Shown piece after piece: positions 5,743 through 38,344 of a DNA stretch of 38,344 nucleotides. A model generated the notes under the pieces. That model had not been told where the DNA came from. It was given only the letters and a program-made list of their open reading frames with translations, and made no database searches. Source of the DNA: a virus (lineage: Duplodnaviria; Heunggongvirae; Uroviricota; Caudoviricetes). Where the stretch lies: IMG/VR virus record IMGVR_UViG_2740892016_000005. One strand, given 5' to 3'. The number at the start of each line of letters is the position of its first letter. Within the stretch, counting starts at the first letter, position 1. Both the position numbers and the translations under genes were made by a program.

Positions 5743-7194
5743 TTATTTTATTTTGCTTACTATATTTGTAATAAGTGGGTCAAATTTCTCATCAATAATT
5801 TCAATATATTTTTTTATTGCTAAAGTTCTAATTACTTCCTCCTCACATTCTGCTTCTTTAGCAATTGCTTGAGTGTAATTGTGATGATCACTAATCCCTT
5901 CCTTTTTTATTAACCAATCAAAATCAATATGATACTCCTTGTAGAGGAATTTTTTTACTTCCTCATGTTGAAATACTTCTACTTCTGGTGGCCTATTGCC
6001 AGGGAAAGAAAATAAATCATCTTTAATGTTTTCTCCAACATCTGCATCTCTTACGGCAATAACATTAAGGCCTGCTTTCTTGAATACCTCGACTGCTTGT
6101 CGGACTGCATCTTTATCTCCAATATCAGTGATTTGAATGGATTTAAGAATGTCTCTCCGCTTTGCTCTAATTACTTCACTAAGTAAAACTTTTGCAAACT
6201 GGTCTTCTACGCAAATATGCAGCCCTTTAAACTGCCCATCAGACAGTATTGATCTCACATGAGTTGTTGAAATTCCATCTTTGATATAGACACCAGTCTG
6301 ATCTCTAATAAGTAATTTTCGTGCATCAGGAGGTAAAGCATTTAATATCACACTTGAGTGTGTTGATAATATTATTTGATGTTTTCTACGTTGACATACT
6401 TCCATTAAATATTTTGCAAATTCATACTGTGCGCTTTCATGAAGAGATGTTTCTGGTTCTTCTAGTACGAAAAGACTTTGCTCTGGAGCTGTTTCAAGCA
6501 TATCAACCGTATAAAGAACTCTTCCTTCGCCAAACCCCATGTTATTTTCAGAATAAGAATACCCAAGTCTTTCAACAATACCAATTTCTGAACGACGTGC
6601 TCTATGAGAAATTCCTTGGAATGCGATATCATCATATGGATGACCTATTATTTTTGCCATCTTCAATATTACTGAATGGTCGACGCTTCTTCTCTCTGTT
6701 AAATCAAAGTCTTTACCGCCATAAACACTTATATCTCTACGTTCTACTTTTGGAATATAGACAGTAAAACCAATGTAAAAACAGTGTCTTTCTGGTTGTC
6801 TTTTATATCCAGACCAAGAAGACTTTATGCGAGTGACAGTCACATCTTGTGTTTTCGTTGAATCATTTGTTTCATATTTATAAATGACACTGGCGTCATT
6901 ATCGAAAGGGGCTGGATCGGCTTTAGATACAGGGAAAAAATCTTTAATATATAATCTCTTATATTCACGGGCTGTAACTGGTTTTTTATATGCGCATATT
7001 GCTAACTGCCCAAGAGTGCTTTTCCCAGCGCCGTTTAGCCCTGATATTGCAGTTACCGGAAAATTTATATTTAATGTTAGTTTTTTTATTCCTCGAAATC
7101 CATTTATCTCTAGACTTTTAATTACGGAGCCAAAGTTTGAGTATCTATTTTTATCAAAGTACATGCATTTTAGTATATTTTTTATGTCTGACAT
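5743..7194 (-). CDS. ABC-type (AAA_15/21-like) ATPase with C-terminal TOPRIM-like domain; OLD/PARIS-like candidate defence nuclease
   Basis: 483 aa. Walker A GLNGAGKST; Walker B/D-loop SLFVLEEPETSLH; H-loop ILSTHSS; C-terminal acidic motifs LHICVEDQ and VIAVRDADVGE consistent with TOPRIM. Gene is AT-rich relative to flanks; RBS aggaaag; own promoter-like signals. Confidence 0.85.
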   Translation of the reverse strand: MSDIKNILKCMYFDKNRYSNFGSVIKSLEINGFRGIKKLTLNINFPVTAISGLNGAGKSTLGQLAICAYKKPVTAREYKRLYIKDFFPVSKADPAPFDNDASVIYKYETNDSTKTQDVTVTRIKSSWSGYKRQPERHCFYIGFTVYIPKVERRDISVYGGKDFDLTERRSVDHSVILKMAKIIGHPYDDIAFQGISHRARRSEIGIVERLGYSYSENNMGFGEGRVLYTVDMLETAPEQSLFVLEEPETSLHESAQYEFAKYLMEVCQRRKHQIILSTHSSVILNALPPDARKLLIRDQTGVYIKDGISTTHVRSILSDGQFKGLHICVEDQFAKVLLSEVIRAKRRDILKSIQITDIGDKDAVRQAVEVFKKAGLNVIAVRDADVGENIKDDLFSFPGNRPPEVEVFQHEEVKKFLYKEYHIDFDWLIKKEGISDHHNYTQAIAKEAECEEEVIRTLAIKKYIEIIDEKFDPLITNIVSKIK

Positions 7195-33731: not shown

Positions 33732-34096
33732 ACATAAAAAGCCGCAGCAACTTGTCGTGGCAGAATACTGCGGCTGGCTGGTGAACTTCCGATAATTTGA
33801 TTATTAAATAATTTCCAGCTGTTATTGATTTTACGTATTTTTTGTATGGGAGAATTTGCACCTCCTCCCATCGACCATCTATGACTGTATGCCACTATCT
33901 ATAGGACTACTATGTGCCAGAAACGGATATTACTGTGTATGGTTAATTCTGCCTGTCAAATAACTTACGTTCATCAAATAATCGAAATTATGACTTAGCT
34001 CAACAATTAGGTTTAGCATGGGGTCATATGACTAGAGTGCAGCGACTTGCTGCAATAATTTAATAAGAATAAAAAATGCCAACTTATGCTAATTAA

Positions 34097-34302
34097 GGCG
34101 GTAATTCGGGAATAGTGTTTTATGAGATTACTCCCGATGTTATCACAGTACAGTTTAAAGATGGATGGAAATACGTTACGATTCTACAAAACTGGGTGCT
34201 TCAACGGTCTCTAAGATGAAAGAGTTAGCCCAGGATGGGCATGGACTAAATAGTTTTATTAGTAGTGTGGTTAAGAAAAATTTCTCACGTAAATACCTTT
34301 AA
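34097..34302 (+). pseudogene. Degraded KTSC-domain-like gene remnant (no start codon, apparent frameshift)
   Basis: Frame A gives GGNSGIVFYEITPDVITVQFKDGWKYVT, resembling the KTSC core (YD...L.V.F.nG..Y.Y). A different frame continues ...ASTVSKMKELAQDGHGLNSFISSVVKKNF. No ATG in frame after the upstream stop. Confidence 0.25.
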
Positions 34303-34532
34303 TTTTAATTGAGGGTGGTAAGGACTATCACCCTCATAATTCTTCACCATTCAATCAAGAGCAATTCAAGGCGATTTGTTCTTATTGTACATGGTCAGTT
34401 AGTTAGCACTTCGTAATTTATTGAATAGAAGACTTTTGGAACAGCATCTGCACTCGTGCTTATCGCCCGGCAGACTTAGCCAGAATAGTCTCGAGCATTT
34501 CTGGTTCGTTGCCTTTAGCTGTATCAATATTT

Positions 34533-36311
34533 TCACCCCCTAGATCTTGCTGAAAGCTCATCTTTATAAGCCATTCTTGGCGTGTAAAAATTATGGAATG
34601 CCTTACCTATTGCACCATTGAAAAGCTTAAGCAATGGTTTATTGCTCCCTGCGTTTAAAATATTCCTCATTGCTATACCAGGGTATGGATCTATGTAATA
34701 TATTTGTTTGATCCCTAATTGATACGCTTTTTTAGAACATAATTCACAAGGGCTTGCTGTTGTGAACAAAAAACCATTCTGTATACCAACGCCACCATAC
34801 TTAGATATTTGTAAGAAAGCATTCTCTTCAGCATGAAGTGATCTTGTAAAAACTTGATTAGCGTTAGATTTTATTTTGTCAATAATAGCAAACTCATCAT
34901 CATTTAACTTATGTTCGACCCGTAGATCTTCTTTGTATTTATCATCAAGGATATTATTCCATTCTGTTTTAAAACAAAATGGAGCTCTCATTCCTTTATT
35001 TTTAACATCTAAAAAAATAATCTTAGTGCTATCTATTTTTCGAATGAAACTATTTTCGTTCTTTTCGAATTCAGAGTAAGCAATATCATCAATCCCCTCA
35101 GACAAATCAAACCTATCCCTTAAAGAGCAAGGAACTTGACCACTTGGTACATCATTCCAACCAATAGACTTAATTGAAAATGAACTATCAGATACTGCAG
35201 CGCCTACCTGCCTGGATATACAACCAGAGTTCAACTTAGCTGTATATGCTATCTGCATGCAACGTTCAACATTTGATGGAGTTATTATACCAGGACGCTT
35301 CATTAATGAAGTGAATTTAATTAATTGATTAGCCAATCCTGAGTACCGACAAACAACATTTTCCTCTTCCGGATTCTCAACATAGATGTCTGATATTTCT
35401 AAACAAGACTGTATATTCTGATATATATATGATGACTTCTCATCCAAAGATGATTTACGGTATTCTTTTGCATCAATATCTTTTATCTCAGCATCAGTTA
35501 AACCTTGTTCTCTAAGCCTTTGATGCCTGTAATGCTCTTCTGTAGAAACAGCCATTAAATAAAATGATGAGTATCTATCTTGGAAGTATGTTGCTTCGAA
35601 CGGATTTCTTATAGCATCAATAACTATATAAATAGGTTTCTTTTCTCCAGTTTTTGTGTTCTTTTCTTTTGCTAAGGTTCTTAATCTTTGAATTATATCA
35701 TTTATTTTTTTAGGAAGAAAAAAACCATGGAAATCATCACTAAATGAACTGTCATGGTACATCCCACTAGATCTATAATTATTACCTATAGCTTGATATA
35801 GCTTTATATAGTCAGCCTTGTTCTTAAATATGGATTTAATTTGTGTATTCGCTTTTATTAGATATTCATTTATGAATTTTATCTTATCATCTATATCATG
35901 ATCAGAGCTTTCATCTTTAGCTTTAATTTCTTTTAGTATAGATTCAAGATCATTAACTGTTGACTCTAGGACTCTTTGGTCATTACCTAACTCCGTCACT
36001 TCCCGAATAAATTTATTCAGCTTACCATCAAAGTCCTTTGATAAACACAATGTCAGTATGGAACTTGCTTGTATTTTTATAAATGGAACCCATGACACGG
36101 AAAAATATTTAAATAGAACCCGCTCTTTTCTTTCTTCATTCGACTTAGGGTAATCACCGTTAAATAGAGAATGCTTTATCTCACTTGATTCTGATGACAG
36201 TATATTAGAAACTGTTGAACAGCCTGACCCCGTCCTCCCTGTTAATCCTATAATTAGGAAATCATCATCTTCACTATATATTTTACTCAGTGCGTCATTA
36301 TAAAAACCCAT
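34533..36311 (-). CDS. P-loop NTPase / dCMP-deaminase fusion protein; AvcD/DCD-like candidate nucleotide-depletion defence
   Basis: 592 aa. N-terminal deviant P-loop GLTGRTGSGCST; C-terminal deaminase motifs ERCMQIAYTAKLNSGCISRQVGAAV, HAEENA and PCELC (zinc ligands). AT-rich; RBS ggag; own promoter-like -10. Confidence 0.9.
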   Translation of the reverse strand: MGFYNDALSKIYSEDDDFLIIGLTGRTGSGCSTVSNILSSESSEIKHSLFNGDYPKSNEERKERVLFKYFSVSWVPFIKIQASSILTLCLSKDFDGKLNKFIREVTELGNDQRVLESTVNDLESILKEIKAKDESSDHDIDDKIKFINEYLIKANTQIKSIFKNKADYIKLYQAIGNNYRSSGMYHDSSFSDDFHGFFLPKKINDIIQRLRTLAKEKNTKTGEKKPIYIVIDAIRNPFEATYFQDRYSSFYLMAVSTEEHYRHQRLREQGLTDAEIKDIDAKEYRKSSLDEKSSYIYQNIQSCLEISDIYVENPEEENVVCRYSGLANQLIKFTSLMKRPGIITPSNVERCMQIAYTAKLNSGCISRQVGAAVSDSSFSIKSIGWNDVPSGQVPCSLRDRFDLSEGIDDIAYSEFEKNENSFIRKIDSTKIIFLDVKNKGMRAPFCFKTEWNNILDDKYKEDLRVEHKLNDDEFAIIDKIKSNANQVFTRSLHAEENAFLQISKYGGVGIQNGFLFTTASPCELCSKKAYQLGIKQIYYIDPYPGIAMRNILNAGSNKPLLKLFNGAIGKAFHNFYTPRMAYKDELSARSRG

Positions 36312-36361
36312 AAAATCTCCAGTAATAATGAAGGATTTAAAATAAAAAGCTCTACTTAGAT

Positions 36362-36400
36362 GTTTTTATTATATAAAATACATCTCCATTCTTCATTAGT
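36362..36400 (-). promoter_or_regulatory. Promoter-like region for the deaminase gene
   Basis: Consensus -10 TATAAT on the minus strand (36369-36374) about 55 nt upstream of the ATG; -35 poor. Confidence 0.3.
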
Positions 36401-37295
36401 ATATTACGAATCTGCAACTTTCACACACGATTTTTCATCGGATGTACTAATATTAGCAAGCGGAGCTTTCTTTTCCCAGACAGCTTCCATCCGCTGCATC
36501 GCGGCAACCCGTGCGTAGCCGATGTCGATTAAGTAATACATCACCCAGAGATACTCCCGTAACCTAAATCATCTTCAAAACGATATATATCTCTGACTTT
36601 CACGTATAGTACGACATCTCGCGGCACATGGCATACACGGACTCTTAAGCCACCTTAATCGCCTGATTCAGGGAATTCACTGCAGGCTTCTACTGCTCCA
36701 GCCCAGTTTGTTTTAACTCCTGCTCAACCTGAGTCAAAGCTGTACTAACTGATTTTTTGTCTGTCTCAGTCATGTTGCCGGAAGCACTGTCCAGCTCACG
36801 GATAACACCACTGGGCTTGTATTTGAAATCGCGTGACTATGAGCATTACGATCTTGATCCGCTGCACTGGAAGGATTATTACGACGTGTGGTTAACCCAG
36901 CAAAGGGCATTCTGAGGACTTGTGACGCAATCTACTGTCTTACCGTCTGGTGGAGATATTCCTTGCGATGCGCAAGAAGTTTAAAGGTGTCATTCCACCC
37001 AATAAATTCTGACCTGTTTCCAATTGATTAACACACTGTAAAGCGAGTAATGCCCCACGTCTGTATCACAATTGCTAACTTCCGTTTCTCGCACAGAGAG
37101 GACCTTCAGTTCAGTCCGATGGTCTGCTCTGTGCCAAAAGCGGACGTTAAGCTTACCAACTCATATTTTAAGGTCATAGGTGCGTATAAACGAAGTGCCG
37201 CGCTTAGGAGTAGTGAATTTACAGACTTACAAAATCATTTATTTCAGGCCAATTTATGTAATGGCATAATCAGGTTGGTGAAAGAGAGGGCGGAA

Positions 37296-37880
37296 ATGGA
37301 TAAAAAATTTAAAAATCAGATAGTAGATAGCGATATTGCACTTTTATTGCTTAAACACAGGAAGGCTCGCAATTTGACTGTAACAGAGCTTGCTCAACGA
37401 TCGGGCGTCAGTCAGGCCATGATTAGTAAGATTGAACGAGGCATCTCCAGCCCTAGTGCAACTATCCTTAGCCGCCTGGCCAACGCCATGAATGTAACGC
37501 TATCTAAACTCTTTGCAGAGCTTGAGCAACATCAGAATTCCCTGGTTCGTGTTGCTCATCAGCAACAGCACTGGACGGATGAGCAATCAGGCATCACCCG
37601 TTGGTCTTTGTCTCCTGCGGGGGCATGCCCGGAACTGATCAAAGTTGAAATCCCTGCAATGGGTGAGCTGACGATACCCGCCTCCGCAAATGAGCATCTT
37701 TCCGGGCAAACGCTTTGGATGATGAGTGGCAGCCTTGATTTTCGAGTCAAAAATCAGACCCATCATTTACGTGCCGGTGACTGTCTTGCCCTTACCTTTG
37801 CAAGCGAGTACCAAATGAGCAATCCAGATAGTGAGCAGAGCTGTTCTTACATCGTGGCTTTTAGCCAAAAAAATCAATGA
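37296..37880 (+). CDS. XRE-family HTH transcriptional regulator with C-terminal cupin domain
   Basis: ORF 37050..37880 trimmed to ATG 37296 (RBS gagagggcgg). HTH LTVTELAQRSGVSQAMISKIERG; C-terminal beta-rich cupin-like region. Probably host-encoded. Confidence 0.7.
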   Translation: MDKKFKNQIVDSDIALLLLKHRKARNLTVTELAQRSGVSQAMISKIERGISSPSATILSRLANAMNVTLSKLFAELEQHQNSLVRVAHQQQHWTDEQSGITRWSLSPAGACPELIKVEIPAMGELTIPASANEHLSGQTLWMMSGSLDFRVKNQTHHLRAGDCLALTFASEYQMSNPDSEQSCSYIVAFSQKNQ

Positions 37881-37900
37881 TATCTTCTTTGCCACATTGG

Positions 37901-38344
37901 TTACATGTTATTGGCCATTCTCAGATGCAACAAGGGGTATGGCCTTCCCTGATTATCCAGCTCGGAACGCCCTGATACCTGAAAACCCATATGCTGATAA
38001 AACCCTACAGCCTGCTGGTTTTGTTCATTTACATCAACGCTTAGCTCTGGATGCAGCGCCAGTGCATGAGAGATCAAACGTTTTCCGACGCCAAGTCCGC
38101 GAGCAGAGCCTGCTACAAAAAGTGCCTCCAGATGCCCCTCATGCAAAAACATAAATCCTAGCGGTTGGTCATCCTGATTTGTTGCAACCCATACAGGAGT
38201 TTCTGAGAAAAAGCCGATAACTTCTTTTTCGATTTCTTGTCGGTCATGACCTGTAAGAAAGTCGTGGGTAGCATCCACTGAACTCTTCCAGATTTGTATG
38301 ATCTCTGATGCTTCAGATGGTCGTGACATTCTGATATCTAACAT
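37901..38344 (-). CDS. GNAT-family N-acetyltransferase
   Basis: 147 aa; acetyl-CoA-binding motif region ARGLGVGKRLISHAL; the start codon abuts the window edge, so the true 5' end may lie outside. Divergent from the regulator gene. Confidence 0.75.
   Translation of the reverse strand: MLDIRMSRPSEASEIIQIWKSSVDATHDFLTGHDRQEIEKEVIGFFSETPVWVATNQDDQPLGFMFLHEGHLEALFVAGSARGLGVGKRLISHALALHPELSVDVNEQNQQAVGFYQHMGFQVSGRSELDNQGRPYPLLHLRMANNM

Follow-up and report, generated by a model that had tools for sequence, protein, structure and literature searches.

What fills the gene-poor DNA next to an anti-phage deaminase gene in a lambdoid prophage of Escherichia coli, and why is it there? The sequence analyzed here is IMG/VR record IMGVR_UViG_2740892016_000005; its full length of 38,344 nucleotides (nt) is hereafter called the window, and the interval in question, positions 36312-37050, directly adjoins the start of a minus-strand gene encoding an AvcD-family deaminase. 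The window matches the chromosome of E. coli Z247 (NZ_CP021207.1) with 100% identity, window position 1 corresponding to record position 4259713, and comprises most of a lambdoid prophage with replication, head, tail, and tail-fiber genes. A preliminary description, made from the sequence alone, had proposed that the interval is a site of gene decay at the prophage/host boundary, in the region of the right attachment site (attR), or that it holds a small regulator or antitoxin-like RNA for the deaminase. We now consider it quite likely that the interval contains the dead fossil of a plasmid gene, mobX, together with noncoding filler, both carried into the prophage with the deaminase, and that the ~165 nt proximal to the deaminase were kept as its promoter and leader.

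A mobX pseudogene lies upstream of the deaminase gene

All open reading frames (ORFs) of at least 20 amino acids (aa) in the interval were listed. The list bore out the earlier statement that no ORF of 60 aa or more is present: the longest are two 52-aa plus-strand ORFs, at 36360-36518 and 36757-36915. The absence of a 60-aa ORF from 739 bp is not unusual in itself. All three fragments named in the preliminary description were recovered at their described places, and these, with the deaminase gene and the pseudogene described below, are as follows.

34533-36311, minus strand: AvcD-family anti-phage dCTP/dCMP deaminase, 592 aa, with P-loop NTPase and cytidine/dCMP deaminase domains
36352-36806, minus strand: mobX pseudogene (pSC101-type plasmid mobilization accessory gene), MobX residues ~46-194, 5' end lost
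36404-36544, minus strand: ORF MYYLIDIGYARVAAMQRMEAVWEKK..., 46 aa from GTG or 45 aa from ATG, previously described as a 45-aa ORF
36690-36773, minus strand: 27-aa fragment MTETDKKSVSTALTQVEQELKQTGLEQ
36757-36915, plus strand: 52-aa ORF ending ...YEHYDLDPLHWKDYYDVWLTQQRAF

The decayed gene was identified by sensitive DNA searching against E. coli genomes and plasmids. Positions 36353-36806 matched 266 mostly mobilizable or conjugative plasmids with 67 to 78% identity, in a gene variously annotated as "mobilization protein MobX," mislabeled as "tRNA modification GTPase," or listed as hypothetical. On these plasmids the gene is found directly downstream of a MobA/MobL relaxase gene and near traD; pSC101-type plasmids carry mobA, mobX, and traD (PMC10376468). 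When two 194-aa plasmid MobX proteins were aligned to the region by tblastn, they matched with E values of 1e-43 and 2e-38 and 66 to 76% amino acid identity, the alignment covering residues ~46-176 in two frames. The 27-aa fragment corresponds to MobX residues ~57-83 and the 45-aa ORF to residues 132-176. On this sequence comparison, the two minus-strand fragments are parts of a single mobX pseudogene and not chance ORFs.

Read along the minus strand, the relic has four in-frame stops (TAG at 36690-92, TAA at 36645-47, TGA at 36600-02, and TAG at 36564-66), a first frameshift near 36546-36550, a premature TAA at 36404-06, and a second frameshift near 36390, before it reaches the old C terminus, ...YIIK, and the original stop region at 36352-54. 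A less decayed copy on Logan contig L007 aligns to residue 193, at the MobX C terminus ...IIK. The plasmid matches all end sharply at 36806, and nothing beyond that position matches any plasmid; because this end is sharp and shared, we conclude that the first ~45 mobX codons were lost at a breakpoint. The relic is not downstream of any mobA. With ~45 codons absent, four stops, two frameshifts, and a premature TAA, no full-length frame of ~194 aa exists, and we therefore classify the gene as a pseudogene. The earlier suggestion of gene decay thus stands insofar as the minus-strand fragments come from one gene that has been disrupted, with lesions that differ by lineage, but its placement at attR does not. 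RefSeq annotation (PGAP) gives no feature in the ~1 kb between the deaminase and the next gene (36312-37295), including the pseudogene; the ~455 bp left blank there should be labeled a mobX pseudogene.

The plus-strand fragment is of a different kind. The 52-aa ORF runs antisense to the mobX relic over its first ~17 codons, about a third of its length, and the fragment matched nothing in plasmids (tblastn), Pfam, NCBIfam, or PHROGs. A search of 5.8 billion proteins returned only ORFs from copies of the same cassette (see below). Because the fragment has no relatives outside the cassette, there is no sign that it is anything other than a chance ORF. Most of it falls in the DNA beyond the relic:

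36807-37075, unstranded: noncoding filler belonging to the cassette, containing the plus-strand fragment ...YEHYDLDPLHWKDYYDVWLTQQRAF (36838-36915)

The filler is present in other copies of the cassette, to 37039 in L007, to 37098 in Proteus, and to 36894 in Yersinia. It matched nothing in plasmids, phages, Pfam, NCBIfam, or PHROGs, and its RNA fold has a z score of +0.70. An Rfam scan of 36000-37400 at E values up to 10 returned only spurious symmetric microRNA matches on a neighboring palindrome and a weak match to an Enterococcus small RNA. A promoter/terminator scan found nothing on the minus strand, and a scan of the window and its flanks for tRNA and transfer-messenger RNA found none; a core, ...GCTCTGTGCCA, considered as a tRNA end, was rejected on this last result.

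The relic and the deaminase travel as one cassette

We compared the flanks of close deaminase relatives (90 to 96% amino acid identity) on contigs with the window. Homology upstream of the deaminase extends to a different limit in each group of copies.

Rep3 plasmid copies: upstream homology limit 36440
Yersinia enterocolitica P2-like prophage copy: upstream homology limit 36894
Logan contig L007 copy: upstream homology limit 37039
Proteus terrae prophage copy: upstream homology limit 37098
Other E. coli prophage copies (SF-468 and others): upstream homology limit 37147
34519-34532, unstranded: fixed downstream cassette end, 11-14 nt past the deaminase stop codon

On the downstream side, every prophage-lineage copy (L007, Proteus L018-20, and Yersinia L021-23) ceases to match at 34519-34522; the match to the Rep3-plasmid copies stops at 34541, just short of the deaminase gene's 3' end. 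As judged from these limits, the mobX relic and the AvcD-family deaminase move together as one cassette with a fixed 3' end and a variable 5' end.

Copies of the cassette (window 34519-37098) were found in L007, L008, and L018-L027, the Rep3 plasmids that carry it being small. The Proteus terrae copy follows the tail-tip J gene region of its prophage, and the Yersinia enterocolitica copy is inserted between the portal and gpA genes of a P2-like prophage. Within E. coli the cassette is rare, being carried by only 6 of 5,426 complete genomes. More distant homologues do not share it: a 71%-identical chromosomal homologue resembles the window in the ORF only and has a 60-nt gap to its upstream gene, and a 59%-identical homologue shares nothing upstream. 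The Rep3-plasmid deaminase (90% amino acid identity) has only 129 nt of upstream sequence in common with the window. In these Rep3 copies (L024-L027) the deaminase is called as 625 aa, its frame remaining open for 34 extra codons upstream; the call is probably an annotation artifact, since these copies keep the conserved ATG and Shine-Dalgarno sequence of the 591/592-aa forms. A contig scan with the deaminase returned only relatives of 43 to 44% identity, which were of no use for flank comparison.

A conserved block stands out from a neutrally drifting relic

We aligned copies seven ways and took rate figures from the five prophage-lineage copies. All prophage-lineage copies have in common the 5' truncation, the TAG at 36564, and a frameshift. 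Beyond these, the E. coli copies have three extra stops, the Proteus copies have 85-bp and 11-bp deletions and new stops, the Yersinia copies have a 1-nt deletion in an A-run, and L007 has 1-nt and 4-nt deletions. Conservation does not extend to the 45-aa ORF, its start being deleted in the Proteus and L007 copies. The fractions of variable positions were as follows.

36476-36806 (distal relic): 0.162 (38/234)
avcD four-fold degenerate sites: 0.16 (28/175)
avcD codon position 1: 0.054
avcD codon position 2: 0.020
36312-36475: 0.049 (8/163 columns)

The distal relic varies at the rate of four-fold degenerate sites and therefore drifts neutrally. Nearby, ~0.14 of columns are variable in 36792-36881, which is near neutral, and 36807-36894 varies at a rate similar to that of the distal relic. 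Pairwise divergences agree with the contrast in rates. Positions 36478-36806, two-thirds of the relic on its distal side, and the next 270 bp would thus be functionless DNA in neutral drift. The fossil serves as a built-in ruler of the neutral rate, and it exposes a constrained element of ~165 nt before the deaminase:

36312-36477, minus strand: conserved ~165-nt upstream block, putative promoter and leader, overlapping the last ~40 codons of the mobX relic

Within the block, 36422-36477 is a 56-nt invariant run (position-corrected probability of about 0.03). Its motifs include a Shine-Dalgarno GGAG at 36320-36317 and a perfect TATAAT at 36373-36368, the latter formed from the former mobX codons Y-I-I-K, together with TATACT at 36403-36398 and TTGCTA at 36459-36454. 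We take the block to be most likely the promoter and leader of the deaminase gene, and the proximal ~165 nt would have been kept because they supply its promoter, 5' leader, and ribosome-binding site. This block is the only part of the interval worth an experiment.

Several observations weigh against this account of the interval. A sigma-70 consensus scan of 36000-37400 found no minus-strand promoter, and the promoter assignment rests on hand-read hexamers and conservation. A minimal promoter and leader would need fewer than 165 conserved nt, and the 56-nt invariant run among these lies well upstream of TATAAT, the best -10 element. In comparison with the Rep3 copies, conservation of the 129-nt leader barely exceeds that of four-fold sites (variation of 0.15 to 0.18, versus 0.20 to 0.22). 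A pseudogene of ~450 bp that has been kept through ~0.1 substitutions per site is somewhat long-lived for bacteria, and no plasmid with an intact mobX beside this avcD was found.

An AvcI-like RNA or a MobX-derived peptide is an unlikely source of the conservation

The conserved block could have another function. It might encode an AvcI-like noncoding RNA antitoxin, exapted from the 3' end of the mobX relic, that would bind and inhibit the deaminase and be lost when an infecting phage shuts down host transcription. AvcI (DifV) is encoded directly 5' of avcD, on the same strand, and is cotranscribed with it; the minimal form measures 152 to 174 nt in Vibrio cholerae, and the transcript has ~280 nt in V. 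parahaemolyticus. AvcI sequences have nothing in common from one species to another and were at first recorded as small hypothetical ORFs (bioRxiv 10.1101/2021.03.31.437871; PMC10511110).

The adjacent gene is of the right family. The deaminase matched the PADLOC dCTPase model (E = 2.2e-127) and, in Pfam, dCMP_cyt_deam_1 (E = 2.5e-12) and AAA_18, and it has the arrangement of an AvcID toxin, in which an N-terminal P-loop NTPase/kinase-like domain is followed by a dCMP/cytidine deaminase domain at the C terminus. It is 37.5% identical to an E. coli protein annotated as "anti-phage dCTP deaminase"; the other E. coli dCTP deaminase examined is likewise located at a prophage end. The upstream region of TW10598, another E. 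coli dCTP-deaminase locus, has no similarity to the one described here, as expected given that AvcI RNAs share no sequence. The block further matches AvcI in position, strand, and size, and variation in 36312-36477 is about 3-fold below neutral. By prediction it folds marginally better than shuffled sequences (z = -1.99, 6/200), into a structure compatible with all five prophage-lineage copies. Single-sequence fold z scores were -0.53 for 146 nt, -1.99 for 169 nt, and -1.55 for the relic.

Comparative evidence points the other way. RNAalifold, run on seven or five sequences, found no compensatory pair and gave a positive covariation term, although variation among the copies was too low for a real test of covariation. 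Exact-pattern scans of viral and metagenome contigs returned only near-identical E. coli copies and so did not strengthen that test. An indel of 3 to 10 nt falls inside the block, and the 129 nt shared by the Rep3 copies do not include the 5' side of the predicted closing helix. The upstream element is not kept with the toxin across close homologues, since the Rep3 copies share those 129 nt only and neither the 71% chromosomal homologue, with its 60-nt upstream gap, nor the 59% homologue shows any similarity there. No promoter or terminator was predicted around the block, and no Rfam family matched it. The leader diverges from the Rep3 copies almost as fast as four-fold sites do, and the conservation is more simply explained by a promoter and leader. 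We therefore regard an AvcI-like antitoxin encoded by the block as unlikely. It is quite unlikely that the 3' end of the dead mobX was exapted as an AvcI-type antitoxin or as another cis- or trans-acting RNA regulator of this divergent AvcD clade. Were it true, exaptation would explain why ~165 nt are conserved while the rest of the relic decays, and type III antitoxin RNAs could arise de novo from pseudogene transcripts.

It is highly improbable that a small regulatory or antitoxin peptide is still made from the MobX C-terminal remnant, as either the 45-aa ORF or a 26-31-aa core, MQRMEAVWEKKAPLANISTSDEKSCV. An ORF of 26 to 31 aa with this core is open in 5/5 prophage-lineage copies and spans the stretch in which the two plasmid MobX proteins compared resemble each other most, and the few substitutions at its 5' end include three synonymous ones. 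The 56-nt invariant run, however, lacks any synonymous change, which argues for constraint at the nucleotide rather than the protein level. As noted above, the Proteus and L007 copies have lost the start of the 45-aa ORF, the frame stops at different positions in SF-468, Yersinia, and the other copies, only six codons are kept in the Rep3 copies, and no Shine-Dalgarno sequence was read before the internal ATGs. Nor was there a family match in Pfam, PADLOC, NCBIfam, or PHROGs.

The interval is internal to the prophage

That the interval is an eroded prophage/host junction is hardly credible, although it lies distal to the last tail-fiber genes, where lambdoid b-region and attR DNA is expected, and a breakpoint in homology to deaminase-less genomes occurs ~70 bp to its right, at 37122. 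The left end of the prophage is at a tRNA-Thr gene (thrW), adjoined by a frameshifted integrase. A 48-bp exact direct repeat of the thrW 3' end, marking attR, was found at L001 7565-7612, equivalent to window positions 38814-38861; it is ~1.8 kb to the right of the interval and ~470 bp beyond the end of the window, and an integrase pseudogene follows it directly. The two thrW repeats are ~45.6 kb apart. The thrW core has no match anywhere in the window, even with up to 3 mismatches allowed. Conversely, the core at 37122 is absent from the other prophage end, and 37122-37147 is therefore not an attachment core.

Homology does not end at the interval and give way to host DNA. SF-468 and other related prophages regain homology over the 320 bp beside the repeat: the Z247 and SF-468 prophages have this 320-bp arm in common up to the thrW repeat and carry different cassettes in between, SF-468 having another block, of 2.9 kb, between the two landmarks that in Z247 enclose a pair of genes for a helix-turn-helix (HTH) regulator and a GNAT acetyltransferase. 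That pair, immediately to the right of the interval, is also phage cargo, occurring in phage Evi, and unrelated prophages and contigs have received the entire interval together with the deaminase. With the attR repeat beyond the window, a shared 320-bp arm beside it, and a mobile cassette on the flank, the interval is therefore interior cargo DNA of an ~45.6-kb lambdoid prophage at thrW, not a prophage edge. The position of the thrW repeat thus places the boundary elsewhere, the outcome that the preliminary description had named as counting against attR; nor is the decayed gene a phage or host gene eroded at a junction, being a plasmid gene presumably imported with the deaminase. For annotation, the right prophage end belongs at the thrW repeat past the window and not at 36312-37050.

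The integrase beside thrW at the left prophage end, outside the window (L004 18056-19175), is annotated as frameshifted, and a second, truncated integrase lies just past attR (L001 7625-7828). These two defective integrases suggest tandem thrW islands and a prophage that is perhaps no longer able to excise.

A palindrome separates the cassette from its neighbor

What, then, is the breakpoint to the right of the interval? It falls within a palindromic repeat between two units of cargo.

37076-37149, unstranded: 74-bp imperfect palindrome, cargo-cassette junction (DNA hairpin of -18.3 kcal/mol, z = -4.26)
37122-38344, continuing to window-equivalent 38568, unstranded: next cargo cassette, 98.8% identical over 1,447 bp to a segment of an E. 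coli M19 chromosomal island
37296-37880, plus strand: XRE-HTH/cupin regulator (Pfam HTH_3, Cupin_2)
37901-38344, minus strand: GNAT acetyltransferase (Pfam GNAT)

The palindrome, AACTTCCGYTYCTCGC...GCTCTGTGCCAAARGCGGACGTT, matches no Rfam family. The crossover between SF-468-like and M19-like sequence is in its right arm, with a shared core, GTCTGCTCTGTGCCA, at 37122-37136. From the alignments, the breakpoint at 37122-37147, the nearest to the interval but outside it, is best described as a cassette-swap crossover between two cargo cassettes. Related palindromes of ~80% identity occur in P2-like phages and on the chromosomes of 328 E. coli genomes, where they lie close to the same island. Since the Z247, SF-468, M19, and Proteus crossovers all fall inside its arms, the palindrome may be a hotspot for cassette exchange. 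Further copies were noted at ~33905-33935 (partial), L003 5403-5485, L029 4001-4074, and L030 2501-2580; the palindrome flanks the HTH-GNAT pair in E. coli M19 and stands between two cargo genes in the tail-fiber/sheath region of P2-like phage 899. An integron attC-like site was considered and set aside: the right end, GTTAAGC, fits GTTRRRY, but the crossovers lie inside the arms and not at G/TT, and the SF-468 copy lacks the motif.

The HTH-GNAT block ends in another palindrome-arm motif, and the same gene pair is present in Escherichia phage Evi (L033 2995-4208), between the replication genes and Q. The XRE-HTH/cupin gene and the convergent GNAT gene constitute a mobile two-gene cassette.

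On the other side of the deaminase, ~800 bp of AT-rich DNA (33732-34532, 35 to 40% G+C) separate it from the last tail-region gene and contain no ORF as long as 60 aa. Two small ORFs that overlap here, 34115-34219 and 34165-34302, look like a single frameshifted gene; Pfam found nothing in them and gave no support to a frameshifted KTSC-domain gene at 34115-34302, which we rejected. Elsewhere in the window, a 483-aa ORF (5743-7194, minus strand), on the opposite strand to its neighbors, matches the AAA_15, AAA_21 (AbiEii-like), and DUF2813 ATPase domains and is possibly a second defense moron in the same prophage.

Origin of the cassette and comparison with known systems

How the relic came to lie beside the deaminase can be outlined as follows. 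An AvcD-type deaminase gene would once have stood ~40 nt downstream of mobX, presumably on a small mobilizable plasmid. A fragment from about mobX codon 46 to just past the deaminase stop would then have been captured as a moron cassette, which may since have moved between prophages and plasmids of several Enterobacterales. The plasmid origin and the direction of transfer are what we infer from the comparisons above; the 5' DNA of the deaminase gave no match to plasmids or phages that would identify a donor plasmid. Although real, the finding is an ordinary one: a defense gene has brought with it the fossil of a plasmid gene and some filler. It offers a small, clean case in which a defense gene takes a plasmid-derived fossil between plasmids and lambdoid, P2-like, and Proteus prophages.

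Three known systems bear comparison. The first is the mobX of MOBQ pSC101-type plasmids. Relative to MobX proteins such as WP_023281055.1 and WP_039052609.1 (annotated as hypothetical), the relic has 66 to 76% amino acid identity over residues ~46-176. Unlike the plasmid gene, it has no adjacent mobA, traD, or oriT and is located in a prophage; unlike a working mobX, it has lost its first ~45 codons, contains stops and frameshifts, and evolves at the neutral rate.

The second is AvcID, a type III toxin-antitoxin and dCTP-deaminase defense system (Hsueh et al.; Tal et al.). As in AvcID, an AvcD-family deaminase is adjacent to a conserved noncoding block of AvcI-like size, immediately 5' and on the same strand, and the locus is carried on mobile elements. 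It differs from AvcID in that the deaminase is only 37.5% identical to the other E. coli anti-phage dCTP deaminase examined, the candidate RNA shows no covariation, the block is not shared across the nearest homologues, and the upstream sequence derives from the relic of a plasmid gene.

The third comprises phage morons and cargo cassettes, as in the lambda b region and the P2 tail-fiber/sheath hotspot. Like these, the deaminase is an AT-rich gene (~26 to 40% G+C, versus 42 to 55% in the flanks) transcribed opposite to its neighbors, between the tail-fiber genes and attR; neighboring cassettes have been swapped between related prophages, and the same cassette occurs in the cargo regions of Proteus and Yersinia prophages. 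Unlike a typical moron, it carries along ~760 bp of nonfunctional plasmid-derived DNA, and its right boundary falls repeatedly within a 74-bp palindromic repeat.

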